Assembly (NCBI GenBank): GCA_902766325.1
Contig: CACXDF010000220.1
Location: 1 to 30,110, forward strand
Direction of reading: 5' to 3'
DNA from: an uncultured Eubacteriales bacterium
Lineage (GTDB): Bacteria > Bacillota > Clostridia > Christensenellales > DTU072
DNA: 30,110 nt
A program made the translations under genes and the position numbers. Every line of letters starts with the position of its first letter. Positions within the stretch are counted from its first letter, which is position 1. The notes beneath the pieces are model-generated. The model was given only the letters and a program-made list of their open reading frames with translations. It was not told the DNA's origin and ran no database searches. This document shows positions 3,723 to 30,110 of the stretch, piece by piece.

Positions 3723-6700
3723 ATGAAAAAAAACAAAATAAACAGTCCCGCAAAAGTTATTATCGCGATCGCGGTGGTTTTTCTTTTATTGCTGATCGTT
3801 TTTTTAGGGACTTCAAAACGCGCGTTGGAAAATAATCCTACCGAGATCGCTCATGCCGAGGCAGTCAAAGCAACGAGCGGAAGAATAACTTTTTCTTTTG
3901 AAGAACCCCAATTGATCCATTCAAACGGAAGCGAATATCAGCTGGGCGAACCCGTTTACGTCGATCTTGCGACGGAAAGCGATTGGATCGGTAATATCGT
4001 TGATAACTTCCGTACCAGTATTTCTTATTCTTCGACGGAGTATACCGTTAACAGACCTGCTTATTATAACGCCGCATCCGGTTCTCCCACCTCGTATTTT
4101 AAGCGTAACAATTATACGGACAGCGAGGATAAAACCAGATCGTGGAGCGTCAGAGATGTATTGGAAATCAGATCCGACAACGGCGCAACGCCCATCAGCG
4201 GGAATCATCCGATCAATAACGGTTCTTCTTACGTTTCCGCCGTCGCGAGAGGCGAGGTCATGAGTTTTTATTGCGAAACTTGTCACGCGAATAAATCCGC
4301 CTCTGAGATACAATATCACGTTTGTTCCGCGTGCCACGCACAACTGACGGCCGTCGGGACGGCGAATAATAACAAGTACGCCGTTAAATGTTCGAATACA
4401 TCGTGCCCGAATAATAATAAAATTTTCATGACGGGAAACGTTTGTCCCGGATGTGGCGGAACTACTACGATCAGCAATGGGATCAAAACCTGTACTCGAT
4501 CTACTTGCGCGTTGCGGAACAAAGAGTTTATCGATTATTACGATAATACCGTCGTTCTTTGTAATAACGGGCACACGATCACGCCCTCCCATCCCGGTAC
4601 CGAGACCGAACCGTGGGAAAAATTCAAAGTCGAAACGCCGAAAGATATCGGCGACGCCGAACACTTTAAGCTTTCCGTCGCTTCGCTTAAGATCAGCGGC
4701 TACGATTGGACGGGCAAAAAGATCACCAACAAAGAGATTTACGACGGAACGGACCTTACTGACGACGTGCTCGCCGGCATATATTACGTATCGTACGTCA
4801 AGTTCAATTTAACGGCAGACGTCGAATATTACAGCGGTTATTCTTATTGCGATCTGGATTGCTACCAGTCTTATTATGATTTGGAGGGAAACGACGGTTC
4901 TTCCATAAAGAACTTTTGGATCGAATGTTCCCCTACGACTACTCACGCCTCTTTTAACGCTAATTCTTTCGGAAATAAGTTGGAATATACTTATGCGCAA
5001 GGCAAGATGCCGATCGTTTGCACCTCTTCGATCGTTCTTGATAGTACGAAAATCTCGCAAAGAGTAAATAATAATCTCGTAAACGTCGACGACTATGTCG
5101 CAGTATACAATCCATCGATCAATTGGTCGGATAAAATCGGTTTGTACAAGTCGACGTCTTTCGATATACCCGGAGAGTTCCATTACAGTTTGGGCCTTGT
5201 TGATCGTGCTCCTTTTACTTTAAAAAAGGGGATTACCAACTCGGAAATACCGAACTCAACCCTGAACGTTCCGCTCGGAGATGGGACGGTAGCCGATTTT
5301 CTTAAAATCGAATGGTATCATGATGCTAAGTTGAATAATCCTGTAGACGATAATAGCGTGGTGGAAAGTGGCGATTATTATATAGTGATTCTTCCGACGG
5401 GAGGTTCGGATAGTAACTTCAATTTGAATTTAATTAATAATTATACCGGAGAAAGCGGTTTTGATTTCAAGAAGAATTTAATTCGTTTTATATATTCCGA
5501 CGGGACCAATATGCAAGAAATAACAGATGTGACGCAAAACGGCGTTACTTCCGTTTACGTGCAACACTTTTGTGTGTCAAAAACCAAATTAAAGGTAGAC
5601 GTAGTCAATAATTATGGCGGACAGTTGATCGCAACCAGCAAAATGTTTGAAAGGTATTATGATAAGATACCGTTAACAGGTTTAAACGCCGGAAGTGATT
5701 TGCCTTCCGATATAATGTATTATCAACAAATTCCGGAAGGTTCCGGCAATTATGTGCTGCAAGGCAATATCGATGACAACGGTACTTTTACGCCGGGTCA
5801 TTATTCTCCGGGAGTCGTTTATTATACGCAAGACGGTACGGAAGATAATCCCGTTTACGTTAAGGTTCCGTTATCGGGATTGACTGTCAATAACGAACTC
5901 CCGACCGATATGGTTTTTTATAAAAAAGGACTTGATGATAATTATATACCGATTCGGCAATATATCAACGATGAAATTTATACGCTGAATTATACTGCAA
6001 TGAAGAATGCCGCTGAGCTTTTTCAAAGAACGGTAAAAGAAGATTTGTCTAAGAGCGCTTGGACGGAAAAGATGGGTGGCTTTGCGCACGATTACCCATA
6101 CTATGATTTGAACACGTTTAGTTTTAGCGGAACTATGTTTCCCGATCCCAATCCGGGCGTTTATGATAGTTTGATTCTATCGGTTTCGTTTAATGATTCT
6201 TCCTTTAATAATAACTATTGCATTGAACTTGGCGAGTTTGATAATTATGGGAACTGGAATCCCTATTCGTACGTAGAAACGGAAAATCAATCGTATTTTT
6301 TGGGCAGTTTTGTTGATCCGGAAAGCGGAATGATACATTATCAATACAGATTTTTTCATCCGGAAGGAAATAAATTCACAGTATATTCGCCTCCGGTCGA
6401 AATCACCGTCGACGAGCAGTTCGGGCATACGTTTTCTTACGGCGAGATATTTGATTATACCGAGATAGACACGTCGATATTCGGGTTGGAAGGAGAAGTC
6501 GCCTACGACGCCGTCAACGATTATTATACTTTCGGTTCCGCCGATTGGGTCATTAAGATCGTCAATAATAAAAACGACGCCGTATCGATGGAGAATAAGA
6601 ACGTTATTTATATCGTCGCTTCTTTCTATATTTTGAGCGACGAGCTTTCTTACGGATATCAGGACGGCTATGTCAGTAAAGCGGAGGAAGGACTTTACGA

Positions 6701-9700
6701 ATCCCGGTATTACAGAATATATACCAACAGATTGTATCCGTTCTCTTATAACGAGGATTCGCAATCCTATTCCGACGGCGGAAGGTACTTTTTGTCTTAT
6801 TACGTTATGGCAAAGCCCATCAGCGGCGACGCAACGTATATTCCCACCGGCGACGGTCTTACGGCCGTATGGGACGTTGCCGCCGATAATCCGAATCCCA
6901 TCGATCATACGAAAACGGCGGACGAAAGACTGGTCGACGCCTTGGTCGCTTTCCGAATGGAAGATCCGTTCAATGCAAATCCGTACGAGATCAACATAAA
7001 TAAACTGGACGTGTATTATAACGTCGTCGACTACGCTCCCGAAAAGTATTACGACGGGACCAACGCGGTATATGCGCCCAACTACATCGCGGCCGTCGGC
7101 GGCAAAGATTATTTTGCCGGCGCGACGATAAGCAGAGATCCGGGCGACACCATATTCTACGAATACGACGAAGGAACCGATCGTTATTACGAAACGCTTG
7201 ACACTGTTTTCGGTAATTCTAAAACCTACTATATCGTTTCGCGGTTCAAACCGGCGGTAAAGGGATCGGATTATACCGCCGGAGCGACGGTGTCGAGTAA
7301 CAGCAAGGTATTCTACGAATATTTTTCCGTAGACGGACAGTACTATCAAACGAGAGACGAAGTTTTCTCCGGATCGAAAGAATACTACCTTAAGTTGCCG
7401 AATCGGAGTTGCGAACTGGAGTTGTTTGTTCTGGATCCGACTACGACCTTTACGCCGAGAGAAGCGCGGAACGAGCAGGGAGAGACCCATCTTTGCCATT
7501 CTGTTCTGGAATACGATTTATTTACCTATTTCGAGAGCATTGCGTGGATCAGCTATCAAAACGAACGCATCGGGGATCAATCGATCATTCTGAACGGCGA
7601 GATCGATAGCATGACCGGAGAACTCATGTATTTTACTTCGCATTTTACCGGGTCTCAGACCGAACCGAATAATGCGATACGCAGTTATAAAGTAAAAGAA
7701 TCTCTGTTTTATCGCAACGTAGAGCAGAGCGATTTCTGCGGTGTTATCAAGCCGCTTAGTCTTCGCGTGACCGTTTTGCCCGATCTCGAAAGACTTGCCA
7801 GCGATCAGGAAGGATATTCGCCCGCATATTATTCCCGTCCGTATCATTCGTTCTCCGGCGTTGCGATCATGGTCGCCGATCATAACGCAACCGACGCTTC
7901 CGGACAACACAATATGACGAATGTGTATAAGGAAAACGCTCTTTATCCGGTTTCCGACAGCGAATTGGCGTTAAGGCCGGAATTGGCGGACTACTATTAT
8001 GCTTATTATCTGGACGCAGATGATTTCAGACATGTGATCGGATTTGTTTTTTACGGCGATATGCTGAGGATCGCATCTGAAAGAAAAATCAAGTTTATTC
8101 GATTGAAAATAGAAGACGGTTTCTTGGAGAACGAGGGCTTCTATTGGCAGGGCGAAGCCGGATTCGGCGATTGGCAATTCCCGGTGGGTTATAAAGATTT
8201 CCTGTATAATCCGATTATCGGCGAAAGCGACGCTTTAACGCGCGATAAAGAAAAAGATTTTATTTACTGGTATAACGCCGGTAAGGCCGACGCCGCCGCC
8301 GGGATCAACGGCGCCACGGCGGTGCCCATCGGTTACGATACCGCCTACAACGGTTCGGACGTGAGCGATTTTTATATTCTGCATCTTGATTATGAATACT
8401 CCGTAACAAACTACGTTATTACGTATTTCAATGCGGGAGCCGAAACGACGGACTATAAAGCGGACAGCTGGTTCACGTTTGCGGTCACAAAAGCGATTCT
8501 GACCCCGGAAGATATCGATCTTATCATATTGCCGGACGAAAACCCGTCCGTCGGGAAATATCTTCAATACAATTCGTGCAGCCATTACACCGATATCGTT
8601 ATGGCGGAACCGAATCTGACGTACGTTACGTTCTACGGACATCCCGAATTGTCCGATTTCTATAATTACGACGCGACGACGGGGACTTTCTCGGGCGCAT
8701 TCTGCGATACCTTAGAACTTACTTATCAGGGCGTTTTGGCAAAAACTCAATATCAATTACGCGGTTGGATCATCGATACTTACGTTTCGGGCGGTGTTTC
8801 TTACGACAACCTACGCGGAACTTCGCTTTTGACGCGGATCGACAGAAACAATAATCTGCCCGACTTTGATTTCGACAGTATCGTGTTGAAAAAAGGTAAT
8901 TATAACAGAGACGGACGGTTTTTGACCGTGATCAGCTTTACGTATAAAACACCGGACGGAAACGTCACCGTCACGGGCGACGATATTACGGATAAAATGA
9001 AATCCTTTACTTTGGCGGGAACGTACGTCGTCGGCATTACTATCCCCGAGTCGTCAAACTACAGCGCGGTCAAGGGCGCGACGATGGAGTTCACCGTTTC
9101 TTCCGCAACCGTTCGCGTTTATACTACGGTGGCGTCTCGTAAGTATATGGAGGAATACGACGAAACAAAGGAGATCGGCTTTGTCGATTCTTCTCCGTCG
9201 AGGATGATCTTCGTCGATTCCGAAGAAGAACTTGAGACCTACGAAGCCTATATTGACGCCGACAACGGCGAAATCTATTTGGACAAAGCGAGCATTCCGA
9301 GCGGACGCGCTTATTATAAAGTTTACGTTTATCATAATCCGTTCGTACTTGCTACCGGTACGTTCTCCGCGGGAACGCTTTATTATCAACTGAGGAACGG
9401 CGTTTACGAAAACGCTACCGTAACGGTCGGCAACACCATTCCCGCAAACAGTTATTACGTTAAATCGTCGAACAAGTCCGATTGGACGTATGATATTGAC
9501 ACGACTTACGTTATTTATTGCGGTATCCAGCACCGGGACGGTATCGCTTCCAATCCGTTGGAAACGTTCGGCGTACAAGACGCTTATGCTTCCGTTCGGA
9601 ACAACATCGAGTCTTTCTTACAAAAGGACGGTCAGGATCGATTGATCGACGAAGCCAGGATATACGGTCGGGAAAACATCGTCGGACTCCCGGAAGTAGC

Positions 9701-14891: not shown

Positions 14892-14893
14892 TA

Positions 14894-16156: not shown

Positions 16157-16190
16157 TTGCCTTTCTCGCGCGTGTATGATATTATATTAT
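16157..16190 (+). promoter_or_regulatory. Probable sigma-A promoter for gene C
   Basis: TTGCCT (16157-16162) - 17 nt - TATTAT (16180-16185), preceded by TG-n (extended -10); an alternative TATTAT lies at 16185-16190. GGAGG RBS at 16216-16220. Confidence 0.5.
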
Positions 16191-16224
16191 ATAAGCTATA
16201 GGTATGCCCTTTTTCGGAGGATAT

Positions 16225-19200
16225 ATGATGAGAAAGAAATCCGCTTCGGCACTTTTGATTTTACTGTTGGTTTGCTTCCTTTTGCTGACCTTATTTGCCT
16301 GTAACGACAGGAACGGTATTTCCCAAGAGTCGCCGATACAAAAGATCATCATTACCACTATGCCGAAAACGAATTATTACGTCGGAGATAAGTTCTCCGT
16401 CGGGAATGCCGATATCACCGTTTATTACGAAAACGGAAAGAGCGAACACGTTCCGCTTACGCTCAACATGATCTCCGGTTTCGACTCTAACGTCGTCGGC
16501 GATCAGATCCTTACCGTTTTTTACAAGAACCAGACGGCTTATCTCACCGTTAAAGTCTCCGTTGCTCCCGTTTATTCCGTTCAACTCGTTAATATGCCCG
16601 ATAAAACGAATTACGTTATCGGAGAATCTTTGGACGTCTCCGGGATGAAGATCCTCGTCACGTACAGTAATAACTACACCGAGATCATCGACGTCACCGA
16701 GGATATGATCTCGCTTTTCTCGACTGAAAGAGAAGGCGAGACGGAAATGACGGTATCTTACGGCGGAAAGTCCTGTATGGCTGCTTATTCGGTCGCGACA
16801 AAGACGGCGGACCATATCGAGATCAGTCTCGGCGATTCTTTCCGTATCGCTTACGTCGTCGGCGACGCTTTCGAACTTACCGGCGGCAGCTTTTTTGTCC
16901 ATTACAACGACAACACGTCGGAGTTCCTTGATTGGGACGCTCTTTACGAGCAGGGCGCGCTCACGTACGTTATCGAGAAAGAGACCAACAACGTCTTTAC
17001 TACGTCCGCATTGGAAAGAAACGTGTTTTTATACTACAAGGGAGAAAAATATCAAACGGCCGTTACGGTCGCGGCAAAGCGTCCGCAAGGCATTTCCGTC
17101 ATGTCGGATGCGCCCGATCAAATTTTGAAGGGCCATATCGATCTGACCGGGGGGCAACTCTACGTCGTTTATAACTCGAAACAAACCGGTTACGTCGCCC
17201 GCGTTAAGGACTCTACCGCCGAAGCGCGCCGCGCATACGCAAGCGGCGTCTGGAATACCGCTCGTTCCGCCTATTTCACGCTTAAAAACGGCGAATACGT
17301 CGGCGCCGCGAGCGACTTTGACAATAACGCCGTTTATTATACTTCTTCGGAAACCGCTTTTGCCGATCGCTATCAAACGCGTAAAGAATTTTTGTACGTA
17401 AAAAAGAATTCGACTTTTGAAAAAGCGCCCGAAGAATACGACGCCTCCGTCGTTTATTACATTCCTTCCAACGCTCGTCTTTTCGATTTCGACGATCAGA
17501 TCAACGTCGACGTGGTCTGGAACGATTTTGACATCAACGTCGTCGGAGAGTATTCTATTCGCTTGACCGTAGACGGAGCTTCGCTTGACTATCGCATTAA
17601 GGTTATAGCGCCTTCGCCGATCGCGTTGGAAGTCTATCCGACGGAAGGCGACGTGAACGTGGACGCCGTCACCGGCGCGTATTACGTCTATCAGGACGAG
17701 ACTATCCACGTCACCGACTGGGAATATAAGATCAAACAGAATAACGACACTTATTCCATTATTTCTTCCACAGGCGCTTATTCCGCAAACGTCACTTCGG
17801 AAATGTACGTCGGCAGTACTTTTATGACGAACCACGCCGTAGGAACGTACGACTATGATTTTTCTTTTACGACGGTGACCGGTATCACGCTTCGTTGTTC
17901 CGTGCCCGTGGAAGTTCGTCAAAGAGTTATCGTTTCCGCTACCGTAGTCAATCCGACCAGAGTCGTGTACAGCGTGGGCGACGAGGTCTCTTTGGCGGGC
18001 GGGTCCTTGCGCGTGCGCTATATTAACGGCGTCGAAGGTCAAACGATGTCTTTTACCGCCGATATGCTTTATGCCGAAGATCCTACCGGTAATTCGCCTG
18101 TTCGTTACGTCGCGCAGGACGGTTCCGTCGTTCCTCTCGTAAAAAGCGGCACGGACGCTTTTACCGCGAGCGTGGGAACGAGCAAACTCTATATCTACTA
18201 CGAGGACGCTTATTATAACACCTCTTATGCGACGGAATTCGATATCACCGTTATCGTCAAGGCGATCGCTATCGCTTTGAACGAAGATAAAGAAACCAAA
18301 AACGACTATATCCTCGGAGAAGACTTTTCGATGGCCAATTGGGAAGTCGTCATAACGTACGCCGACCAAAGTTACGCCACGGAAAACGATTTTTCCGACA
18401 GTCGGTGGACGATAGAAGGAAACGATCTCTCTACCGTCGGTACGCACACGATCACCCTTTATTACGGGGATAAGTCCGATAACGTGGCGTTGACGTACGT
18501 CTGTACCGTGCATAACGACATTGTTTCCGTTCGTCCGAACGTCGATTTTATCGGGTGCACGACGGAAGGAAAGGGTTTTGATTTCGAAGGATTGAACTTT
18601 GTGGCCGTCCGTGAAAACGGCGATGAAGAAAACGTTCCTATGGCGGCGATGACGATCTCGAAAACCAAAGCCGGAGCCTATGTTTCCGTTCCGACCGAAT
18701 ACGCGCCCGCTACATTCGTAAACGAAGAAAATTGGTCCGTTTACGGTCTGTCTCTATACGAAAAATCGGGAGGAAGTTACGTTTTTGCGACGGCTTTCGA
18801 CATTTCGAAAGAGTACTACTACGCCGTCGACAATATGACGAATATTTCTTTTACGTACAGCGGAAAAGAAGCGATCGTATCCTCTCTCGTCGTCAGCAGA
18901 CGAGTCGAAAGCGTGTTCGTCGCGGCGTACCCGGAAACGGAATACGTTCTTGCCTCCGCCGGAGAATGGGATCTGAGCGATCTTGTTTTGCAAATAGCTT
19001 TTGATAACGGCACGACGGCCGTCGTTAAGCACGCCGATACCGGCTCGACCGTTACTTTCTCTCAAAGCGGCGACAGGTACGTATTTACGCTCAACAATAT
19101 GACTTATTATTTTGAAGTTAAGACGGAAAGCGGCGTCAATTATTCTTTATCGGACATCAAAAACGACCTGCAATCGCAATCTGCGGAAGAATTTATCGAA

Positions 19201-22200
19201 AAGGATCTTGTATTTTCCGTCGAGGATGTCGCTTATCGCGCTCCCGTTTTTTCCGCTTCCGTTCCGTTCTATTGCTTTAATCAAAAAGTTGTGTCTATCC
19301 ATGCGGAGATCGGCGTACCGGTTGTGAGCGGTTCGGAAGTGATCCGCGTTAACGAATTTACCGATACCACCGTTTATTTGAACGAAGGCCTTGCTCTTTA
19401 TACCGTTTCTTCCAACGGAGAGTATTCTTTCGTGGATGATAACGGTACGAAGAGATTCGTCTATAACGATTCCGTCGTAAAAACCGATTATCTCGATTGC
19501 ATTTATCTTGTCGTCGAGTATGATACGACCACCGTCTACAAAAAACTTGCGGACGTCGCGTCTTCTTCCGGTTTTTCCGTCTCCGGCTACAAAGAGAACA
19601 AAACCGGCGCGCAAACGATCCGTCTTACTTATCTTTTAAAAGATTGCTCTTTTATGGCGTACGTTCGTCCCGACGTTCCGTACGCGATTTCTTTTGTCGA
19701 TGAAAACGGACAAAACGTAACCGAGGCCACCGTGATCGAGAATATGGACATCGATCCTAATAAGATATCCGTATCCGTTGAACTGAGAGACGCCGACGGC
19801 GACGCCGTGGCAACGAGAAGAAAAGTCGATTTTTCCGACGCCGCTTGTACGTATGACAAAACGGAAGCGATCGTCTTTACCGAGAAAAACACCGACGATA
19901 TATTCTACACGCAAAAAACGGTGACGGTCACGTACGAAGGCTGCAGCAAAGATCTTACGCTTACCATTTTAAAGAAATCCGTTTCCGAGATCGTCATTCA
20001 AAACATGCCGAGACAGGTTTATGCGGAATTGCCCGAATTCGCAAGTACGGACGAAAGCGTTCTTTTGTATACCGATTCGAACGGAGAAATAGGCACGATC
20101 CTCGTTCGCTATAATAACGGAACTTCCGAGATCGTCCCGCTCAACGACTCCAGATTGCGCGTCAACGCGGCCCAATTCAATACCAAACTCGTGTTGAATG
20201 ACGGCGCGGAACAATCTCAGATCATTACCATCGGTTTTACCGATGAAAACAACGTTACGAAAGAAACGCATTATAACGTTATCGTACGCGACAGAAAGTA
20301 CCTGACTATCAGTTATGACAGTTCGAATAATCTGTCTTTTGATAACGTCTATTATTGTCAATACGGTACCGGAGCCGACGCAAGACCGAAATTCGACGTA
20401 TATTACTATTCCGACTTTTACATGAACGCGCCCGTCGCGTTTAACGGTTACAGCGTGAAGTACGAGTATCACGACGACGTTTTGGGCGACGTGACTCGTA
20501 CCGTTTGGCCGACAGAAGTAGGGCGTTATACGATGGTCGTTTCTTACGCGGGCGACTATGCCAATAACGCTTTCGAGGATAGATCGGTCACCATCGAGAT
20601 CACCAAAAAGCAGATCGGTATTTCCGTGGAAGATATGAGCCTTACGTTCGGGGATAAGTTTTCCGGGACGGCGACGGACGTCACGTCTTTGCGCGCGCTC
20701 GGTTTTACTTGGAATATGAGCGGCGTAACGGGCGGACGACTGACCGGGGACGCTTTTGTGCTCGGCGACACCCTCGACAACGTCGTATCCGTGTCTTTCG
20801 AGCTGCAAAAGGACGGTCGAAAGGTCGATCCCGCGTTCAGCGGAGATAACTCTTATCTCGTTATGACTCTGAACGTCGGCAGCTACTATATCAAGCCCAT
20901 CATTACGCTGAAAAAGGCGAACTACACCGTCCCCGAAGGGGTAGGCGATCTCGGAGCGACTCTTACCGTCGTGAAAAAAGCCATTAAGATCGTCGCGCTT
21001 GACGAAAAGAAGGTATACGGCGATCGCGATCCCGTTTATCGTTTTGAAATCTACGATGAAACCGATAATCTGCTCGGCGGTAACTATTATCGCGAATTGA
21101 CCGGGTATACCGTCGGCGATCCCGTGGCGGAAAGCGTCTTTATTTGCGATCCCGTTACCGGGATATATTCTCAAGCGGCGGGAACATACGAATCCGGGAA
21201 GACCTATTACGTATTCAAAGCGGAGATCGAAATCGATCCGATCTTCGTCGATACCGCTTCTTCGTCGTACAGATTGGTCCGTTCCGGGACGGATACGGAT
21301 AACGTCAACGACTATCACAGGATCTTTAACGGCGACACGGAAGGAACGCTCGATAACTATTCTTTGATCGATTACAGCTATGCTTCTTTGATCGTTTTGC
21401 CTGCGGAACTTACGTTGACCGCAAGCAGGACGACTCGTCCTTTCGGTACGGCCGATATGTCGATCGATTATATCGCCGCCGCGACTTCTTCGTTCAAATA
21501 CAACGACGATTTTGATTCCGTTTTCGGACCGTATTTTACGCAAAGCGCCGTATTATACTACGATATGACGGGAAAGAGCGTGTACGAGACTTTAACGGAA
21601 GGCCTTTCTTCTTACGACGATTGGGCCGTATTATATCGTAATCTGGAGATTGACGGATTCGAGTCGGTCGTTTATATGGGCGCGACCTATGCGGTCGTGC
21701 CGATCGCTCTTGCCTGCGGGACGTATACGTGTCGTATGAGCGACGTTTATTCGGACGTAGTGAAGAACTATATCGTCACGACGCAACCGTTTGAAATGGA
21801 GATACTTCCTATCGGCGTTCGTCTGAACGTCGGTTCCGTTCTGCTTTACGAAAAATCTTTGATCAAAGACGGCAGAAGAAATGCTTTTATCGACTATTTC
21901 TCTTTCCCGAGAGAAGAGTTTTTGACGGTCAATATTTACGGCGAAACGCTCACTTTCTCCGATTTCGTTTTTTCAGTCGATAATCGTGACGATATCGAAA
22001 ACCTGTATGCGGATTGGATGTCGAAACTGATCGTCGGCGCCGAATACGAGACCGGTACCGGCTCGAAATATTTGCTCAGTTCCGACTTTTTGAGCGGTTT
22101 TACGTTCATAAAAGAACGCGGAACGGACACGGGCGTCTATCGGGTCTCCGTCGGATATAACTATTCCGATAACTTCTCCGATTTCAGCGTTATCAGTCGA

Positions 22201-25200
22201 AACGAAGATAAAAACAAGAATTATTTCTCATTCTACTATGACATTTTCCGCAATCAGTACGCGCAGGTGTCTACCATGCAGGCGACTGCCTACGATACGG
22301 ACGCATACGTGATCGTTTTGCCCGGATTTGCCGATTTGAAGTATTATAAAGTCGACGAAGACGGCAAGAGATATCAAGAAGTCTATAATCTCAATAAGGC
22401 ATCCTCTTGGGGATTGAACGCAGAATACAGCGTCGACCAAGAAAATTATTACGGTATGTCCTCCATCGGAACGGACAGCGTTACTTATTCTATTACGCCG
22501 AAAGCGGGAACGCAATTTATCGTGTATAACCGCGAGAATTGTCTTGCCGCGGGCGACTATACGGGTTCCGTCACGTATTCTTATTTTGCCGACGTGAACA
22601 AATCGTCGAAGTTTTCGACAAACTATATCTATCTCGGTAATATGAGCGTGCTTTTGGATAGCGATATCGCCTCCGTCCTCAATTACGTTTTGTTCGGAAC
22701 GGTGACGGACGGCGCGTTGACGTTCAATAATACTTTTGATTATACCGTTACGCAAAAACCCGTTAGCGTATACATAGAAAACGGCGACGTCCAATATAAT
22801 TTTGCCAATCAAACGCTTATCGCTCGCGTGGACGGAAGTTTGGCCGAAGGCGACAGATTGAACTTTTTATTCGACGTTTCCGTCGTCTATAACAGCAAGA
22901 CGGACGTCGTAAATAAAAACGCGTCCACGATCAGGAGTTTCAAGTATTATTCCGTTGTCCCGGAAGAACTTTTAACGCGCGAGAACCTGCCGACTTATTA
23001 CGAATACGGTTCGAGAGGATTTGTGTTGACGCAAGATACCATCCCCATGAATCGTAAGGCGTACTATCTGCTCACAGAGGCGTCGGATCCGTCGGTCGAG
23101 GCCTACGATATCGCGTATTCCGGCACTTATACGGTCAGATTAAACGATCTTGGGAACGCCAATTATTGCCTCGAAACGGACGAAACGGTTCAAAAGACGT
23201 TTGCCGTCGTGCCGAACGAAATACCGATCCTGTTATATAACAAAGCGGCTATGCCGCAGGTCTCCACGACCGATTTTACTTTTGAAGAGACGTATGCCAA
23301 AAAGGCTTTCTCGCCCATCGATTACAGCTGGACGTCCACGACCTACGCCAACTCCTTGCTGTTCGACAGTATCGATCTTAGCCAGCTTTCTTCCGTTAAT
23401 TCTTCTGCGACGAGGAAGATCGGTACGGCTGCGATCGGCGGCCAAACATACGACGTCAACGTTAAGTTCCGCGGTACGTTCCCGAGCCTGACGGTGACCG
23501 GTCGCACGATCAGTATCTCCGGAAGCAACGGCAGAACGCTCGCGCAGGATACCTATTCGTCCGAGTACGACTATTATTTCTATTTTGTGGACGGCGGAAA
23601 CGAACGCAAGGTCTATTACGACGCCGGAACGGGTTCGTATTATTACAAAGATGCGCCGTATACGACTTTCAAAACGACTACCTGTACGATAACCGACTAT
23701 TACTTCGACGAAAACGGCGTTTTACATCGTCCCCAACCGCTTGTCAATACGCCGAACACGTTGTTTATTTATTCGGAAGACGAGCCCGGCTCCGGCAACA
23801 GACCCGTTTACGTCAAACGCGACCCCGATACGAAGAGGGTGCTCGGTTATGACATCGTATCGAGAGATACTTCCGACTACGTCAACTATACCGTCGTATT
23901 CGTCTATTTGGACAACGGCGTATACAGAGAATGCGACGACGCGCATCTGTTCTCCTTTGTGATCAATCCGGCGGAAGTTTCGCTCTATAATTTCTCGTCC
24001 GCGAATACGAAGGATTACGACGGTATCGACGCCGCTATCGCAAATACCTCGAAATTGACCGTCAACGGCGCTCTGTCCAACGATCCGATCAGCGTGTCGG
24101 ATATCCAATTCGACTTCGAGCGTATCGATGCGGAAGGTTCTACTTATATTACGATCGGCGGAGTCAGATATTATCTCGTGGAAAACGACGATATGAGCAG
24201 CGTCGGCTTGTTTAAAGTGAGAGCGTTTTATTCCGATAACTACGAGATCGTCTTTAAAGGAAACGGCGCTTATAACGGCTCTCCGTCTCCGTACGGCTTA
24301 TATACCATCAAGAGAGTCAAAGCCACATTTGAATTTAATAACGAGATCGCGGCTTATCTCTCCAAGGACTACGACGGATCCGGGCTTACGGACGAGACCT
24401 TGCTTTATTCCGGCGATCTGACCGAATTCGTCGATCGGGGATATAACGTGATCAGTAAACAAAGTAAGACCATCGTCGATAATTTTTCCGATATACGGTA
24501 TCAACTTCAAGTGAAAGGATATGCTTCCGTTTTCGGCGGGACGCCGACCGCTATCGCTCAAAATCAGATCGCCGGTTATAACTATTCCGCCGGAGTTTAT
24601 TGGTTTGACTTCTACGGCGTTTTCGTAGACAAAGACGGTAATTATCGTCGGTACGAGGACAGAAGCAATAAAGAAGAGGGCGAAAACCGGTGGTTGAACT
24701 GGAACTATACCTATATCGTCAACAACAAGAAAGACGTCAATAAGATCGGAGACGTCTATTACGACGGTATTTATCAGATCGATAAGAGAAAAGTATATAT
24801 CGGTATCGACGGACAATTACCCGCGAATGCGACGGATACTTCGTATACCTATACGAAAGAGTACAACGGCACGACGATCACCAGATCGACGATCAATACC
24901 TGGCTCGATAGCGGCGTCGTCACCGTCTATATCTACGATGCGGTCAAAAAGGATTTCGTTCCCGTGAAAGATACCGATTTCGCCGATTCTTTCGTCGGAG
25001 GCAGCGTATCCGTCAGCGGCGGAAGAGAATCGATCACGAATGTGTCGAGTTCCGAATACTTCGAGCTGAGCGCGTCCGATATCGCGACCAACAATACCGA
25101 CTTTATCATCGTCAACTCCGATATCCGCTTTATGTTGAAAGCGATCGAGATCGAGATCATGTTGACTTATACCAATGCGGATAGCGGAAACTCCGCTTCG

Positions 25201-28200
25201 ATCACGTACGGCAAAACGGCCAGAGAAAACGCCGTTAACTTTACGCTCAGTATTTCGGAAGAGGAATTGAAAAAGTTCAACGAAGCCATTCAGGACGGCA
25301 ACACCTATACCGCTACGCAAATACTCGAAAAAGTATGTAATTTCAATAACGCCGAGTTCTATCTTTTCGGTGCCGATAATCCGGCGAACGCCGTGTTCCG
25401 CTTCTCTTTGGAAGGGAAATCGCAGTCGTTCTATCTTTACGATAAAGCGGGCGACTATTATTACGAAGCGGCCGACGGTACGTACCGTGACGATACGACC
25501 TACTACAGCAGATTGCTCGTTCCTGCGGGGACTGCTCTTGATTATACGAAGTACTATGTCTACCACGAATGGTACGAACGCACTTCCGATCCCGTATCCG
25601 TCGCCGGAAAGAAGTATTATTTGATGGAACAAGTCACGGAGAGCGACCCCAATTTCCGCGCGGGAAGCGGCGTGCCGGAAGACAGATACTTTGAACAATT
25701 CTATCACTATACGTTCACGACGGATACCGTCTTCCGTCCCAACGTATCTTATTATAAGCGTAATCCGGGAACGAACGTTTACCGCCTCGTCGATACGTCG
25801 GCTTTGCTCGGTTCTTCCGTTCCGGCGGAGACCTATTATACGCAAAATGGTTATTACGCTTTAACGACGGACCGTATATTCAATTTGCAAAAGAGATATT
25901 ATACTGCGGCGGAATACGTATTCACAGCGCAAAACGCCACGACCACCGCGAATATCTATTACGAAATGAATAAGTATTACGGTGAAAACGAAGACGATTA
26001 CTTTATGTCCGGAAAAGATTATTACGTCTTTACCGTCGTGCCTGCGTCGGGATCCATGGTGGGCGTCAACGTGCAGGCCGAAACCTATTATGAACGGGTC
26101 GGCGATAGATTCGTCCTTACTTCCGATCTTACTTTCGTTCGTTCGAAATTGTATAACGGTCAATACTATACGGTAAGCATTGCCGACGTCATCCGCGGAG
26201 ATAACGCTCATAAAAAGTATTATACGTATTCAAGCGGCAGACATATCAGAGTGCCGGACGGCACCGTACGTCAGGCCGGCGTATCGTATTACGTCTTTAT
26301 TCCCACGGTATACTCGGAAAAAGAGGTCGTTACCGAATACTATTATTACTATTCCGACGGAAAATTCTTTAACGTGTACGATATGCGTCAAGAATTGGAC
26401 GGCGATAAGAACTATTACGTTGGGTACATAGCCGACAAGACGGCAAACGAAAACGTAGCGTACTATACGGAATACGAGGCGATCGTAAAGGCGGAAGGCG
26501 CGCGCGAAAACGGCAGATACTATTATAAAGCCGTCTTAATGGATCCCACCGAAGATACCGATACGTATTATGCGGTCAAAAGATTGCTTCCGGGTAAGGA
26601 TTATGCGTTGAACGGGCTTATTCCGTCCGGCAGCGTGTACGAAAACGTCGACGACAGCGATACCTACTATCTTACGTCCGACACTCGTTATTCCGCAAAC
26701 AAAAACTATTACAGACTGTCCGTTGTGTCCGGAGAACTCGTTGCCGGCGATAAGGTCGGTAGCTATTATATCGTTTCGCAAGGTTATTCTCGCGCGGGAA
26801 GCTCTTTCGAGAACACCGAAAATACTTATTATAAGGTTATCGAGGCTGTAGCCGGCAAGGATTACGCCGTTTCTTCCTTGATCCCCGACTCTACCTATTA
26901 TACGAAAGTAGACGGCGAAGACAGATACGCCTTTGCGCAGTCCCGCATTTTTGCCGCCAACGAGAGATATTATTTGTTCGAAGCGATCCACGGCGTATCA
27001 AGCGTATATTCGATGTCCGCGCTTTTCACTCTCAACGACGGAAGTTATAAAAAGATCGTTGCGCTTACGTCCGGAAAAGAATACGTTAACGGCGCGATGA
27101 TAGGCGCTGACGAAGTATACTACAAAAGCAACGACAGATATGTAAGAGAAACTGCGTTAAAGTACAGAAAAGGCGTAGAATATTATCATTTTGTCACGGC
27201 CGAAGGCTATATCGCCAATTCTGCTTTGAGCGACTATTACGTGGATTCTTCCGCGCGATATACGATCCGTGAGATGACGGCGGGGATTGATTATTCGATA
27301 GGTCAAACCATCGGTGAAAACGTAGTTTCGGCTGATTCTTTCGAGAAGTCGAACGACGTCGAGTATCTTGCCGGGAAGTTGTATTACGGATACGACAACG
27401 ACGGCTATGTTTCCGGCGCGCTGATCGGAACCTATTCCGTGCCGGCGGATGGTTTCTATTCAATAAAAGTCAAAAGCGGATACACGGTCGGGCAGATCGT
27501 TCAACAGGACGTCTTTGTGTTGTCGGGCGATCGCTATAAAAACGTAAGAGGCAGTACCTATCGTTCCGGCGTTACCTATTATGCGTTTACGGAGGCAAGC
27601 GGGTTTATTCCCAAGAGGAATATTGATGATTATTATGTTTCGGGGCGCGGTTATTATTCCGCCGTTTTGATGACGAAAGGCGTTGATTACGTAGTCAATA
27701 CGCCTGTTGCGGAAGGCGTATACAGATTGATCGGCGGCAGGATGATCGCCGTTCCGACTACGGATAACTTTGCCGACGGAATCGTATACTACTTCCTTGA
27801 CGACGCGGGATTTATTCCTTATTCCGACCGCGCAGATTATTATGTGGACGGACGAGGATATTATTCCAAAAAGAGATTATCGCTCGGCGTTGACTATTCC
27901 GTCGGCGACAGTATCGGAAGCGGCGTCTACGTTTATCGTCTCGGCAGATACGTTTTGCCGGAAGAACTGACGTTCCGTTCCGGTTACGATTATTACTTAA
28001 TGGATAACGTGGGTCTTGTTTTAGGCAGCGAGATCGTTTCTTATTGCATTACGGGCGAAAAATACTATTCCTTCACGTTGCAAACGCCGACGGAAGGCGA
28101 TCGTATCGAAGGCGACGTCTTTGAAAAAGAATCCGCGGTATTTATTCCCACTACGGATACGGTGTATCGTAGCGGAAAAGAGTATTATTTACGTTCGAAC

Positions 28201-30110
28201 GCCGGTCTTGTCGATCCGGCCGATTTGTCGTCCTATTACGTCGACGCGACGGGGTGTTATACCTTGGTCGAGCAGGAAGAGGACGTCTCTTATTCCGTAG
28301 GAGATCCCGTTCCGAGCAATATGTATTATGAGATCACGGCGGATGGGATTTGTCGCTATACAAGGGACGAGACCTTTATTTCCGGCAAAAAGTATTACGT
28401 ATTCCGCGCCGATAACACGTATTTGCCGGCAGATGCGGACGTAACGTCTTATTATTTTGAAAACGTTTCCGATTACGGCGTTCGCGCGTTGATCGCAGGT
28501 AAAGATTATACGGTCGGCGACGCTGTGTCCGATAATACGTATACCGTCGACGATAAGTGGTACACCTGTCTTACTTCGGGTGTTTATGAGCAAAACAAGC
28601 GTTACTTTATCTTAGAAGCCGCTTCGGGCTATATCCGTTCGGGCGATCTTCCGACAACGTTCGTCAAGAGCGGAAGCGATCGGTTTATGGCCGTTCTTCT
28701 GAAAAATTATACCATCGGCGCGGCGATCCCGAATAACACGTTCTATACGCTTGCTCCCGACGGAAGATTGATCTACGCAAGCGGAGTATTCGTCGAGGGT
28801 ACGGACTATTACGCCAAATCGACGAACGGTTTTGCGTACGGCGCGAATGAAACCGAGCTGTATATCGTCGACAGCAGATATAACAGCTTTTACGAGAAAG
28901 ACACGACTTCTCTTAACGGAACGTCCGCCGTCGGCAGTTATGTCCGCAAAGAGGACGGCAGAATGGTCGCCGTAACTTCCGGAAACTATACGACCGGCGT
29001 TACTTATTACGAAAGCGTCAATATCGGTCTCGTACAGATCGCGCGGCTCGGCGACTACTACGTATCAGGTTCGGGTCGATATTCCGTAGAAAAAACGGCG
29101 TTTTCTACCGACGCTTACGTTTATTTAAAGAACGGAGAATACGTCAAGACGACGGATGCTACGGCAAAGGACGGTACCTCTTATTATCGCTTCTTTACGG
29201 GCGGATTCGTGCAGAATAAGTATTATTCGCAATACTACGTTCCTACCGAGGTGTTCAGAACGGATAAAGTCATTTACGAACACTATCGATACGGAAACGA
29301 CGTTCCTTATGCGGTAGAGAACGAAACGGACGATTTCTATTCGAAAACGGTACCCGGTCGCGTATATGAAAAAGACGGCGATAAGTACTATACGACTTCC
29401 GACGCTGTATTCGTCGTCGGTAAAGAGTATTATTTGTTCGTTCCCGTGACCGATTTTTCCGACAGAGAAACGACGGACGGCTTATACGTGTTCAGAAAAG
29501 GATACGTCCGCTCTCAACTGTCTTACGCCGCGCTCAGAAAGGCGGTACCGGGCGTTGATTATCAGATCGGTAGGTTCGTTTCGGGCGGGTTCTTTACTTT
29601 GAACGCAAATTCCGTACCGTTCGAAGTGCCCGGCGGCAGTATGTTCTCAGCCGATACCGTTTATTATCGTCTGAACGATTATTACGGCATTACGTCGATC
29701 CCGATCTATTACGAACAGAACGTAGACGGGTCGTATTCGGTCACGACCGACCGTACTTTCAATAACGCGAAGAGCTATTATGCGTTTACCGAAGAATCGG
29801 TCGTAGTCGGCGATATGATCCCGCAAGGTTTCTATTTTGTGAAGAGCGGCACCGACTTTGTCGAAACCACGGAAGAGACCTTCCTGCAAGACGTCGATTA
29901 TTATACCGTAAGAATGGTAAGCGTGACCAACGGCGCTTACGTTGTGAACGGATTGTACGAGAAAGCGGGCGATATCTACGTCGTTACCGGCGATACCGTC
30001 ATGGATGGAAACAAGTCGTATTATCGTTTTGCTAAAGATAACTCGGTAAGCAACTCCGATCCCGTCTTATTGTATGAAAAAGTGGGCGACGAGTACGTTC
30101 TTACGAGCGA
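16225..30110 (+). CDS. Gene C: 3'-truncated giant lipoprotein (>4628 aa): Big_3-like array, MBG/YDG-like domains, Tyr-rich repeat array; absent from the ORF track
   Basis: Frame +1 from ATG 16225 (alternative ATG 16228) read by hand to base 30110 with no stop. MMRKKSASALLILLLVCFLLLTLFA-C26 (Cys codon 16300-16302) is a type II signal with lipobox. Next come Big_3-type units (ITTMPKTNYYVGDKFSVGNADITVYYENGKSEHVPLTLNMISGFDSNVVGDQILTVFY; NMPDKTNYVIGESLDVSGMKILVTYSNN), then MBG (PTEVGRYTMVVSYAGD; KKVYGDRDP) and YDG-like (TKDYDG, SKDYDG, TKEYNG) units. Confidence 0.88.
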   Translation, partial: MMRKKSASALLILLLVCFLLLTLFACNDRNGISQESPIQKIIITTMPKTNYYVGDKFSVGNADITVYYENGKSEHVPLTLNMISGFDSNVVGDQILTVFYKNQTAYLTVKVSVAPVYSVQLVNMPDKTNYVIGESLDVSGMKILVTYSNNYTEIIDVTEDMISLFSTEREGETEMTVSYGGKSCMAAYSVATKTADHIEISLGDSFRIAYVVGDAFELTGGSFFVHYNDNTSEFLDWDALYEQGALTYVIEKETNNVFTTSALERNVFLYYKGEKYQTAVTVAAKRPQGISVMSDAPDQILKGHIDLTGGQLYVVYNSKQTGYVARVKDSTAEARRAYASGVWNTARSAYFTLKNGEYVGAASDFDNNAVYYTSSETAFADRYQTRKEFLYVKKNSTFEKAPEEYDASVVYYIPSNARLFDFDDQINVDVVWNDFDINVVGEYSIRLTVDGASLDYRIKVIAPSPIALEVYPTEGDVNVDAVTGAYYVYQDETIHVTDWEYKIKQNNDTYSIISSTGAYSANVTSEMYVGSTFMTNHAVGTYDYDFSFTTVTGITLRCSVPVEVRQRVIVSATVVNPTRVVYSVGDEVSLAGGSLRVRYINGVEGQTMSFTADMLYAEDPTGNSPVRYVAQDGSVVPLVKSGTDAFTASVGTSKLYIYYEDAYYNTSYATEFDITVIVKAIAIALNEDKETKNDYILGEDFSMANWEVVITYADQSYATENDFSDSRWTIEGNDLSTVGTHTITLYYGDKSDNVALTYVCTVHNDIVSVRPNVDFIGCTTEGKGFDFEGLNFVAVRENGDEENVPMAAMTISKTKAGAYVSVPTEYAPATFVNEENWSVYGLSLYEKSGGSYVFATAFDISKEYYYAVDNMTNISFTYSGKEAIVSSLVVSRRVESVFVAAYPETEYVLASAGEWDLSDLVLQIAFDNGTTAVVKHADTGSTVTFSQSGDRYVFTLNNMTYYFEVKTESGVNYSLSDIKNDLQSQSAEEFIEKDLVFSVEDVAYRAPVFSASVPFYCFNQKVVSIHAEIGVPVVSGSEVIRVNEFTDTTVYLNEGLALYTVSSNGEYSFVDDNGTKRFVYNDSVVKTDYLDCIYLVVEYDTTTVYKKLADVASSSGFSVSGYKENKTGAQTIRLTYLLKDCSFMAYVRPDVPYAISFVDENGQNVTEATVIENMDIDPNKISVSVELRDADGDAVATRRKVDFSDAACTYDKTEAIVFTEKNTDDIFYTQKTVTVTYEGCSKDLTLTILKKSVSEIVIQNMPRQVYAELPEFASTDESVLLYTDSNGEIGTILVRYNNGTSEIVPLNDSRLRVNAAQFNTKLVLNDGAEQSQIITIGFTDENNVTKETHYNVIVRDRKYLTISYDSSNNLSFDNVYYCQYGTGADARPKFDVYYYSDFYMNAPVAFNGYSVKYEYHDDVLGDVTRTVWPTEVGRYTMVVSYAGDYANNAFEDRSVTIEITKKQIGISVEDMSLTFGDKFSGTATDVTSLRALGFTWNMSGVTGGRLTGDAFVLGDTLDNVVSVSFELQKDGRKVDPAFSGDNSYLVMTLNVGSYYIKPIITLKKANYTVPEGVGDLGATLTVVKKAIKIVALDEKKVYGDRDPVYRFEIYDETDNLLGGNYYRELTGYTVGDPVAESVFICDPVTGIYSQAAGTYESGKTYYVFKAEIEIDPIFVDTASSSYRLVRSGTDTDNVNDYHRIFNGDTEGTLDNYSLIDYSYASLIVLPAELTLTASRTTRPFGTADMSIDYIAAATSSFKYNDDFDSVFGPYFTQSAVLYYDMTGKSVYETLTEGLSSYDDWAVLYRNLEIDGFESVVYMGATYAVVPIALACGTYTCRMSDVYSDVVKNYIVTTQPFEMEILPIGVRLNVGSVLLYEKSLIKDGRRNAFIDYFSFPREEFLTVNIYGETLTFSDFVFSVDNRDDIENLYADWMSKLIVGAEYETGTGSKYLLSSDFLSGFTFIKERGTDTGVYRVSVGYNYSDNFSDFSVISRNEDKNKNYFSFYYDIFRNQYAQVSTMQATAYDTDAYVIVLPGFADLKYYKVDEDGKRYQEVYNLNKASSWGLNAEYSVDQENYYGMSSIGTDSVTYSITPKAGTQFIVYNRENCLAAGDYTGSVTYSYFADVNKSSKFSTNYIYLGNMSVLLDSDIASVLNYVLFGTVTDGALTFNNTFDYTVTQKPVSVYIENGDVQYNFANQTLIARVDGSLAEGDRLNFLFDVSVVYNSKTDVVNKNASTIRSFKYYSVVPEELLTRENLPTYYEYGSRGFVLTQDTIPMNRKAYYLLTEASDPSVEAYDIAYSGTYTVRLNDLGNANYCLETDETVQKTFAVVPNEIPILLYNKAAMPQVSTTDFTFEETYAKKAFSPIDYSWTSTTYANSLLFDSIDLSQLSSVNSSATRKIGTAAIGGQTYDVNVKFRGTFPSLTVTGRTISISGSNGRTLAQDTYSSEYDYYFYFVDGGNERKVYYDAGTGSYYYKDAPYTTFKTTTCTITDYYFDENGVLHRPQPLVNTPNTLFIYSEDEPGSGNRPVYVKRDPDTKRVLGYDIVSRDTSDYVNYTVVFVYLDNGVYRECDDAHLFSFVINPAEVSLYNFSSANTKDYDGIDAAIANTSKLTVNGALSNDPISVSDIQFDFERIDAEGSTYITIGGVRYYLVENDDMSSVGLFKVRAFYSDNYEIVFKGNGAYNGSPSPYGLYTIKRVKATFEFNNEIAAYLSKDYDGSGLTDETLLYSGDLTEFVDRGYNVISKQSKTIVDNFSDIRYQLQVKGYASVFGGTPTAIAQNQIAGYNYSAGVYWFDFYGVFVDKDGNYRRYEDRSNKEEGENRWLNWNYTYIVNNKKDVNKIGDVYYDGIYQIDKRKVYIGIDGQLPANATDTSYTYTKEYNGTTITRSTINTWLDSGVVTVYIYDAVKKDFVPVKDTDFADSFVGGSVSVSGGRESITNVSSSEYFELSASDIATNNTDFIIVNSDIRFMLKAIEIEIMLTYTNADSGNSASITYGKTARENAVNFTLSISEEELKKFNEAIQDGNTYTATQILEKVCNFNNAEFYLFGADNPANAVFRFSLEGKSQSFYLYDKAGDYYYEAADGTYRDDTTYYSRLLVPAGTALDYTKYYVYHEWYERTSDPVSVAGKKYYLMEQVTESDPNFRAGSGVPEDRYFEQFYHYTFTTDTVFRPNVSYYKRNPGTNVYRLVDTSALLGSSVPAETYYTQNGYYALTTDRIFNLQKRYYTAAEYVFTAQNATTTANIYYEMNKYYGENEDDYFMSGKDYYVFTVVPASGSMVGVNVQAETYYERVGDRFVLTSDLTFVRSKLYNGQYYTVSIADVIRGDNAHKKYYTYSSGRHIRVPDGTVRQAGVSYYVFIPTVYSEKEVVTEYYYYYSDGKFFNVYDMRQELDGDKNYYVGYIADKTANENVAYYTEYEAIVKAEGARENGRYYYKAVLMDPTEDTDTYYAVKRLLPGKDYALNGLIPSGSVYENVDDSDTYYLTSDTRYSANKNYYRLSVVSGELVAGDKVGSYYIVSQGYSRAGSSFENTENTYYKVIEAVAGKDYAVSSLIPDSTYYTKVDGEDRYAFAQSRIFAANERYYLFEAIHGVSSVYSMSALFTLNDGSYKKIVALTSGKEYVNGAMIGADEVYYKSNDRYVRETALKYRKGVEYYHFVTAEGYIANSALSDYYVDSSARYTIREMTAGIDYSIGQTIGENVVSADSFEKSNDVEYLAGKLYYGYDNDGYVSGALIGTYSVPADGFYSIKVKSGYTVGQIVQQDVFVLSGDRYKNVRGSTYRSGVTYYAFTEASGFIPKRNIDDYYVSGRGYYSAVLMTKGVDYVVNTPVAEGVYRLIGGRMIAVPTTDNFADGIVYYFLDDAGFIPYSDRADYYVDGRGYYSKKRLSLGVDYSVGDSIGSGVYVYRLGRYVLPEELTFRSGYDYYLMDNVGLVLGSEIVSYCITGEKYYSFTLQTPTEGDRIEGDVFEKESAVFIPTTDTVYRSGKEYYLRSNAGLVDPADLSSYYVDATGCYTLVEQEEDVSYSVGDPVPSNMYYEITADGICRYTRDETFISGKKYYVFRADNTYLPADADVTSYYFENVSDYGVRALIAGKDYTVGDAVSDNTYTVDDKWYTCLTSGVYEQNKRYFILEAASGYIRSGDLPTTFVKSGSDRFMAVLLKNYTIGAAIPNNTFYTLAPDGRLIYASGVFVEGTDYYAKSTNGFAYGANETELYIVDSRYNSFYEKDTTSLNGTSAVGSYVRKEDGRMVAVTSGNYTTGVTYYESVNIGLVQIARLGDYYVSGSGRYSVEKTAFSTDAYVYLKNGEYVKTTDATAKDGTSYYRFFTGGFVQNKYYSQYYVPTEVFRTDKVIYEHYRYGNDVPYAVENETDDFYSKTVPGRVYEKDGDKYYTTSDAVFVVGKEYYLFVPVTDFSDRETTDGLYVFRKGYVRSQLSYAALRKAVPGVDYQIGRFVSGGFFTLNANSVPFEVPGGSMFSADTVYYRLNDYYGITSIPIYYEQNVDGSYSVTTDRTFNNAKSYYAFTEESVVVGDMIPQGFYFVKSGTDFVETTEETFLQDVDYYTVRMVSVTNGAYVVNGLYEKAGDIYVVTGDTVMDGNKSYYRFAKDNSVSNSDPVLLYEKVGDEYVLTS
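16333..20290 (+). repeat. Tandem array of about 12 bacterial Ig-like (Big_3-type) domains in gene C
   Basis: Recurrent P-x-K/R-T-x-Y-x-x-G-(D/E)...(V/L)-x-Y-x-(N/D)-G...G-x-(Q/Y/H)-x-(I/L)-T-(V/L)-x-Y pattern. Units 1-2 are canonical; later ones are degenerate and expanded. Count is approximate. Confidence 0.7.
25429..30110 (+). repeat. Degenerate Tyr-rich protein repeat array (about 30 units, continues past the window end)
   Basis: Recurrent G-x-D-Y-x-V-G-x-x-(I/V)...(Y/F)Y...Y-x-x-T-x-D-x-x-F-x-x-G-K-x-Y-Y, e.g. TSDPVSVAGKKYY, TTDRIFNLQKRYY, TTDTVYRSGKEYY, TRDETFISGKKYY, TSDAVFVVGKEYY, TTDRTFNNAKSYY. Repeats are evident in protein, not as identical DNA. Confidence 0.85.

Follow-up and report, generated by a model that had tools for sequence, protein, structure and literature searches.

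The 30,110-nucleotide window analysed here (contig CACXDF010000220.1 of GenBank assembly GCA_902766325.1, from an uncultured Eubacteriales bacterium of the Christensenellales) carries a locus of three genes, termed A, B and C, which probably, if not securely, encode membrane-tethered, glycan-directed fibrillar adhesins of a monoderm gut bacterium without a detected sortase. Evidence for the stalk of such adhesins comes from the Pfam family Big_3, which scores over threshold in C, and from the model of B, a tandem of beta-sandwiches. The three open reading frames (ORFs) share one orientation and occupy positions 3723–30110, as an earlier reading of the letters without database searches (the sequence-only reading) had laid out. 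A (3723–14891, forward strand, ATG at 3723, ribosome-binding site GGAGG at 3714–3718) encodes a secreted protein of 3722 amino acids (aa); B (14894–16114, forward strand) encodes a 406-aa type-I membrane protein, a paralogue of the base of A; and C (16225–30110, forward strand) is the 5' 71% of a gene for a giant lipoprotein and is cut by the end of the contig. Contig C220, which the window covers in full, is the longest in a metagenome-assembled genome (MAG G000) of 1.73 Mb in 313 contigs that is 84.6% complete.

Compared with the features of fibrillar adhesin-like proteins (Monzon et al., 2021; PMC8286594), the locus has export signals in all three proteins (a signal helix with an A-x-A site in A and B, a lipobox in C), tandem-domain stalks (Big_3 in C, three beta-sandwiches in B and sub-threshold MBG/YDG matches in A) and surface anchors (a transmembrane (TM) helix with a basic tail in 9/9 orthologues of both A and B, and the lipobox cysteine in 9/9 orthologues of C). 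As for the adhesive domain, the terminal jelly-roll of C is matched at Z 12.8 in a model with a mean pLDDT of 61, and the head of A has no recognisable family or fold.

Anchors, stalks and tips of the giant proteins

Both A and B begin with a basic and hydrophobic signal-type helix, behind which lies a conserved A-[HY]-A or A-x-A site, and both end in a hydrophobic helix of 21–28 residues with a basic tail (KRNG/KKA in the orthologues of A; RRKY/RKKY in those of B). The nine orthologues of C have no such C-terminal helix and tail; at the N-terminus the lipobox, LFAC↓ND in the window with its cysteine at nt 16300–16302, conforms in eight of the nine to the lipoprotein pattern as in PROSITE PS51257, [LIVMFWSTAG]2-[LIVMFYSTAGCQ]-[AGS]-C after an uncharged h-region. 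Searches for anchoring pathways covered MAG G000 and four relatives (85–97% complete) and found Lgt and LspA above cut-off in five of the five genomes, so that C is a predicted lipoprotein by the combination of lipobox and Lgt/LspA. The same five genomes gave no match to sortase (PF04203), SLH or Omp85 (0/5 for each), which leaves TM and lipid anchors as the routes open to surface proteins; they appear to be the normal means of retaining surface proteins in these genomes. SLH is likewise absent from A, B and C themselves, and no LPxTG-type motif lies near the C-terminus of any of the three. The opposite anchoring polarity of A and C proposed earlier thus holds, as does the statement that LPxTG and SLH anchors are lacking.

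Behind its signal-type helix A consists of a variable head, a long beta-rich stalk and the C-terminal TM anchor. Orthologues of 2635–4760 aa were present in each genome of the genus that was examined, and no Pfam family scored above threshold in A. Its head was without a recognisable family or fold in Pfam, in ESM Atlas features and in a PDB sequence search with the whole of A. The N-terminal cysteine cluster that the sequence-only reading had placed at the tip of A does exist in the window, as part of a Cys/His-rich insert of about 130 aa defined by orthologue alignment (aa ~180–285; 4260–4577, forward strand), but it is restricted to the subclade of G000, G010 and G016, the other six orthologues being gapped here; its Pfam matches, to cytochrome c7/c3 models, are at chance level only. 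GC content falls to 39.6% at 5001–6000, in the variable head-proximal part of A, compared with 46–49% in the flanks. At the other end of the protein, the membrane-proximal base (aa 3434–3722; 14022–14888, forward strand), delimited by hhalign to B, is composed of an MBG-like beta unit, a juxtamembrane beta-sandwich, the TM helix (aa 3697–3718, nt 14811–14876) and the KRNG tail.

Big_3 (PF07523) is over the Pfam threshold only in the N-terminal part of C. This Big_3/Ig-like stalk (aa ~51–756; 16354–18471, forward strand) scored 68.3–78.1 bits by comparison with a cut-off of 21.2, in 7 of 35 segments and in three stretches of the whole-protein scan; the sole match in a PDB sequence search with the whole of C, a 2l7y-like Ig domain, falls at aa 693–756. 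All matches to MBG, MBG_2, MBG_3 and YDG in A and C remained below the Pfam gathering thresholds (15–23 bits versus cut-offs of 23.3–25). YDG reached 23.1 bits (cut-off 25) at C 2599–2654 and 15.3 at A 2997–3052; MBG_2 (15.4) and MBG_3 (14.6) matched A 3445–3529, within the base; MBG_2 reached 14.8 at C 1594–1668; and MBG reached 15.0 (cut-off 23.3). ‘MBG/YDG-like’ is a fair description of these divergent stalk units, with family membership below threshold. An hhalign comparison of whole A with whole C gave low-probability matches that all fell on a shared Tyr-rich unit, together with two-column artefacts, and HMMER iteration from single stalk units (domain 2 of B; A 3031–3128) recovered nothing beyond the orthologues of each; that the stalk units of A and C are homologous is therefore not demonstrable by sequence. 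Of the stalks and Tyr-rich inserts that A and C had been said to share, it is the Tyr-rich unit that sequence comparison shows to be common to both.

This unit is about 39 aa long with the consensus G.DY..G..I....Y....D.Y....D..F..GK.YY. A hidden Markov model (HMM) built from a single unit of C found five copies in A, about 27–28 in C and none in reversed or shuffled controls. The copies in A include two in tandem (aa 1130–1171 and 1184–1223; 7110–7391, forward strand; E 1e-11 to 2e-6) and additional units at aa 1856–1890, 1901–1929 and 2492–2533; BLASTP of A against C gave an E of 0.005 at the position of the Tyr-rich units of A. About 25 of the copies in C form a hairpin array (aa 3073–4635; 25420–30108, forward strand), arranged at aa 3455–4235 as a super-repeat of about 68 aa. 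Neither Pfam nor a feature search of the ESM Atlas gave a usable match to the array. Out of 1.84 billion, only 46 representative proteins matched a profile of the repeat at E<=1e-3, and most are giants of 5,600–7,500 aa or fragments of such giants; P0006, P0012, P0014, P0018, P0019 and P0038 are public-metagenome giants in this size range that carry the same rare Tyr-hairpin repeat, which also occurs in other giant genes of MAG G000.

The ORF of C runs from 16204 or 16225 to 30108 (4635 or 4628 aa) with no stop before the contig end, and its true start is likely the ATG at 16225/16228, after GGAGG at 16216–16220; the resulting MMRKK start is also found in C of the nearest relative. Its continuation was traced to contig C161 of the same MAG (L048:2–5593), where an N-open ORF of 1,864 aa is 80.5% identical to residues 4647–6509 of the 6,509-aa C of G010. 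The gap between the two contigs is about 20 aa and the full-length protein is therefore placed at about 6,510 aa, with its end on C161; as in G010, a 218-aa ORF follows the end of C there. Orthologues of C range from 3765 to 6784 aa. Recovery of this remainder overturns the earlier placement of the Tyr array at the distal end of C, the array of the G010 protein being internal (~3050–4650). Residues 1–3000 and 4676–6505 of that protein align to the 4,444-aa C of G018, where the array has no counterpart; it is an insert of about 1,600 aa found only in the G000/G010/G016 subclade.

At its distal end C has a predicted lectin-type domain, likely a glycan-binding tip, to judge from the modelled structure of the C-terminal 420 aa. 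In exhaustive structural comparison the top 50 matches were mostly ConA-like jelly-rolls of lectin/glucanase type, among them 1oq1 (Z 12.8, rmsd 3.2, 176 aligned residues), galectin-8N (Z 11.9, rmsd 2.6) and CBM66 (Z 11.5), with ERGIC-53, GH16 enzymes and sialidase carbohydrate-binding modules as additional matches; Foldseek and ESM Atlas features concurred on a ConA-like tip. Across the jelly-rolls of galectins, CBM66, ERGIC-53, sialidase CBM40 and B. subtilis 1oq1, the likeness to the predicted fold of the last ~230–300 residues of C amounts to Z 10–12.8 and rmsd 2.1–3.8 Å, at a sequence identity of 6–15%; ligand-binding residues of the tip are not assignable. A PDB sequence search with the tip profile found no match, and Pfam had no family for the C-terminal 1,900 aa of G010 C or for the tips of two other orthologues. 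The tip profile occurs once per genome in 24 of 27 genomes of the genus and always ends a giant ORF where the contig is complete.

Gene B and the conservation of the locus

The stop codon of A and the start codon of B are separated by 2 nt, and a gap of 0–2 nt is conserved across orthologous loci. B comprises the signal helix, beta-sandwich domains at residues 43–136, 138–233 and 236–372, the TM helix (378–405) and an RRKY tail; its AF2 model (pLDDT 86.7) sets the three beta-sandwiches on the TM helix. Among solved structures it comes closest to tandem Ig-like arrays of a generic kind (the S-layer proteins Sap and SbsC, PrgB and cadherins), and B has no Pfam or NCBIfam family. The earlier description of B as a short, TM-anchored copy of the base of A was borne out, although BLASTP of B against A and against C returned nothing significant and the kinship was recovered only by profile–profile comparison. 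With profiles from nine orthologues each, hhalign aligned B 131–405 to A 3434–3721 (probability 97.7%, E 1.9e-12, 256 columns), a match that spans the MBG-like unit, the juxtamembrane beta domain and the TM helix. No similarity of B to C was detected by BLASTP or by profile comparison.

The last ~110 aa of B, comprising the beta domain and TM helix, also close many other ORFs of the family, of 2,000–3,700 aa, and ESM Atlas holds similar C-terminal modules of domain and TM helix on Bacillota proteins with differing passengers; this part of A and B is therefore a general anchoring module. A search for homologues of B 232–406 among longer proteins found none in the 712–2030-aa range. ZU5/FIIND, GAIN and dextranase beta-sandwiches were among the nearest folds to the juxtamembrane domain of B (aa 235–375, 15596–16018), with Z 5.4–7.8. 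ZU5/FIIND and GAIN are eukaryotic autoproteolytic juxtamembrane modules with an H-F-S-type motif. An autoproteolytic module in A and B was considered and rejected: these Z values lie within the background of the tool and the H-F-S-type motif is absent from both proteins.

B is intact in 24 of the 27 genus genomes, with a dN/dS of about 0.12 by comparison with its nearest relative, and on these counts is therefore taken to be a functional gene. The genomes without a match to B or to the tip of C are 73–89% complete. All eight well-assembled genomes of the genus first examined, G004 and an independent metagenome scaffold of 1.0 Mb (A 4,760 aa, B 406 aa, C 6,784 aa) share the gene order typA, membrane protein, A, B, C; the trio is syntenic beside typA throughout the genus. 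The B–C spacer is about 110 nt, and a gap of about 90–200 nt is conserved in orthologous loci; a weak promoter-like site, TTGCCT-17-TATTAT with TG, lies in it (16157–16185, forward strand) as a consensus match only. In one lineage an extra ORF of 261–264 aa stands between B and C (G011:C1 99323–100114; G004:C85 22462–23244). An apparent A–B fusion in G004, a 3049-aa frame, was dismissed as an artefact of masked bases read as X.

The sister genus g21 (L038–L043; G052:C15, G049:C41) has a different arrangement: beside typA there is an A-like giant of 2,464–2,528 aa followed by a second giant of 3,197–3,381 aa whose last ~300 aa are a B-type base, and the protein with a C-type tip is encoded on another contig or about 78 kb away. 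What is conserved is thus a pair of paralogues with TM anchors, which C joined only in the genus of the window; judged by gene order, only A and B form a conserved coupled pair. By the same comparison B is either a truncated giant or the seed of one.

TypA is 77–98% identical across the genus by comparison with 26–81% for A, B and C. Approximate dN/dS values of 0.09–0.12 (about 0.12 for A against its G010 orthologue and about 0.09 for C) indicate overall constraint on the three genes. Such fast yet constrained change, as far as sequence divergence can tell, is typical of exposed surface proteins; the parallel divergence of the three is what shared descent alone predicts.

At least nine studies of the gut of cattle and sheep have metagenomes with near-identical DNA. 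Metatranscriptome contigs from four studies contain scattered pieces of A, B and C at 95–100% identity, one of them spanning the A/B junction, and these matches fit transcription; the parts of the locus without such cover are not evidence of silence.

Upstream of A lie typA/bipA (555–2378) and, between the two, a gene for a 381-aa polytopic membrane protein (2397–3542) that has only a weak MusI-family match (24 bits by comparison with a cut-off of 160). The position of this gene between typA and A is kept in both genera, with an identity of 46–91% within the genus. A hairpin with T-run (cgctc-ttttc-gagcg-tttttttt; 3574–3602, forward strand), read directly and unlisted by the consensus scan, closes the membrane-protein gene and separates it from the A-B-C unit. 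A consensus scan placed a sigma-70-type promoter-like site, TTGACA-17-TATAAT with 12/12 matches, between this hairpin and A (3644–3672, forward strand). The locus, at about 32 kb, makes up about 1.9% of the assembly; ORFs of 1000 aa or more number 57 and account for about 18% of its 1.73 Mb. Many of these ORFs lie at contig ends and represent pieces of giant surface proteins, and the fragmentation of the assembly is probably owed in large part to giant genes.

Apparatus, coat or adhesins

The sequence-only reading saw in the locus a dedicated, co-evolving surface apparatus. Secreted, tethered giants, genus-wide synteny and the coupling of A with B all stand; the extension to a three-part machine, in which A, B and C would physically cooperate, for instance with B docking to the base of A and the oppositely oriented fibres of A and C interdigitating or binding each other, we regard as improbable. 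It would account for the constant gene order beside typA, for the translational coupling of two paralogous bases and for the multiplication of the Tyr unit in A and C alike in the same subclade, but descent alone would produce synteny inside one genus, other giants of MAG G000 (the genome on which the HMM was trained) also contain the Tyr unit, B has no detectable similarity to C, and g21 has an unlinked C-type protein and a B-type base that ends a giant of 3,200–3,400 aa. A complex prediction on the membrane-proximal regions, as the sequence-only reading had proposed, gave weak support for a pairing of the last 300 aa of A with B 131–406 (score 0.37, compared with 0.00 for the best of three controls; contact agreement at least 54%, partner pLDDT at least 83). 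In the calibration of the tool, whose counts are roughly valid for these runs with their own alignments, 58 of 80 solved complexes passed the mark, as did 2 of 110 mismatched pairs; scores of 0.60 or under comprised only 7 of the 80 solved complexes and both mismatches. By this calibration a weak pass is more often wrong than right, and both chains here included TM helices. The predicted contact is a lead rather than evidence of binding. A narrower proposal, that A and B form a heteromeric membrane base in which B would dock the juxtamembrane module of A as a socket or assembly chaperone, with C recruited to the operon as a functionally matched second fibre, is somewhat less improbable, though still unlikely. 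That B should instead be a non-functional remnant, the 3' end of a once-giant second TM-anchored paralogue carried along with A, seems to us very improbable: in g21 a B-type base (B residues ~30–390) does end the 3,197–3,381-aa ORF directly after the A-like gene, but B is intact in nearly all genomes of the genus under a low dN/dS, its signal peptide, TM helix and RRKY/RKKY tail are conserved, its model is confident, and contigs from RNA libraries cover it.

A protective or structural coat, in which a brush of fibres shields or spaces the cell as a substitute for an S-layer or glycocalyx or as a barrier to phage and protists, is likewise improbable. Many of the long ORFs that fill about 18% of the MAG share the TM-anchor tail, several of the giants ending in one like that of A and B; no SLH proteins were found in the five genomes; Sap, SbsC and SbsB, all of them S-layer proteins, are among the nearest solved folds to B (E 6e-5 to 3e-3); and the very fast sequence turnover is as expected for exposed antigens. 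Those S-layer matches, however, reflect generic tandem Ig-like similarity with TM-scores of 0.1–0.2, the conserved terminal domain of lectin type on C would be commoner in an adhesin than in a passive coat, and the locus occurs as a single copy whose apparent RNA depth is low, the last being weak evidence.

Under the preferred reading, of membrane-tethered fibrillar adhesins, A, B and C would be expressed behind one strong promoter-like site. After export and probable cleavage at the conserved A-[HY]-A site, A would be retained in the cytoplasmic membrane through its C-terminal helix, and its beta-sandwich stalk of about 3,600 residues, with Tyr-hairpin inserts, would lift the fast-evolving N-terminal head across the wall and past it. 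B, translated right after A, would most likely sit beside the base of A in the membrane as a spacer or adaptor. C would be lipid-anchored at its N-terminal cysteine by Lgt and LspA and extend in the reverse orientation to A, from the Big_3/Ig-like stalk through the Tyr-hairpin array and more beta domains to the C-terminal ConA/galectin-like jelly-roll, a likely glycan-binding tip. If the domains are arranged end to end, the fibres would be roughly 100–250 nm long. Gene structure, anchor motifs, homologies, synteny, purifying selection and the presence of matching sequence in RNA libraries are shown by the data; the extended shape, exposure on the surface, binding of glycans and any contact of A with B are inferred.

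Several points weigh against this interpretation. The adhesive function of A is assumed by analogy, its head having no recognisable fold or family, and A would be tethered at both ends if its N-terminal helix were uncleaved. The model of the tip of C, built with nine orthologues, is of moderate confidence (mean pLDDT 61, with 70–88 in the last domain), and a ConA-like fold is no proof of sugar binding. The RNA evidence consists of assembled contigs at a depth of 2–5, for which DNA carry-over is possible, and dS is near saturation (1.1–1.5), which makes the dN/dS values approximate.

Relation to known giant surface proteins

Among known systems, A and C resemble the fibrillar adhesins and fibrillar adhesin-like proteins in being long single chains with a tandem beta-sandwich stalk, a terminal putative binding domain, an anchor and fast evolution, and Big_3 is among the stalk domains listed for that group (Monzon et al., 2021; PMC8286594). 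They differ in that A is anchored by a TM helix and C by a lipid, no sortase/LPxTG, SLH, LysM or choline-binding anchor being found here, and in that most stalk units and the head of A have no Pfam family. An N-terminal anchor with a C-terminal adhesive domain is reported to be unusual among the Gram-positive members (PMC8286594), and C has this reverse polarity, with its lipid anchor N-terminal and its lectin-like tip C-terminal.

The closest described genomic analogue is the Giant1–5 set of Apilactobacillus kunkeei (PMC12863079), which likewise consists of consecutive genes for extracellular proteins of 3,000–8,000 aa that take up a sizeable share of a small genome and co-diverge with their neighbours; those proteins, too, carry signal peptides, repeat themselves imperfectly along the chain and possess a terminal domain that putatively binds carbohydrate. 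Giant1–5 have N-terminal beta-solenoid heads, mostly alpha-helical repeats and C-terminal DUF5776/SH3b-like wall-binding domains (PMC12863079), whereas the locus described here has beta-rich stalks, TM-helix and lipobox anchors and the miniature base paralogue B. DUF5776 was not found in A, B or C, with E<=10 as the limit for whole proteins and E<=0.1 for segments.

The staphylococcal proteins Ebh and Embp are retained by a C-terminal membrane-spanning segment and not by sortase. They are similar to A and C as giant adhesins of about 1 MDa in monoderm bacteria. Embp binds fibrillated fibronectin through many repeated modules (PMC9302970). The stalks of Ebh and Embp are built of helical FIVAR/GA modules, Pfam families that were not detected here, and the two are not known to have a partner lipoprotein giant or a small base paralogue.

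A-B-C is accordingly to be seen as a variant within the fibrillar adhesins and not as a new type of machine. It is unusual in using TM and lipid anchors instead of sortase, in its lipoprotein giant with a C-terminal lectin-like tip, in the coupled miniature paralogue of a base and in a very rare Tyr-hairpin repeat. Bacteria of the Christensenellales live in gut and rumen, where they are abundant; they are heritable and associated with health, and most are uncultured. The tip of C, about 230 aa, is a candidate lectin-like domain that could be expressed, and B is a small, well-folding base protein with which the membrane mounting of giant fibres may be probed; if A and B do form a heteromeric base, it would be an undescribed way of mounting such fibres in monoderm Clostridia without detectable sortase. 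The Gram-positive rule of an N-terminal adhesive domain and a C-terminal anchor has in C its predicted lipoprotein-anchored mirror image.

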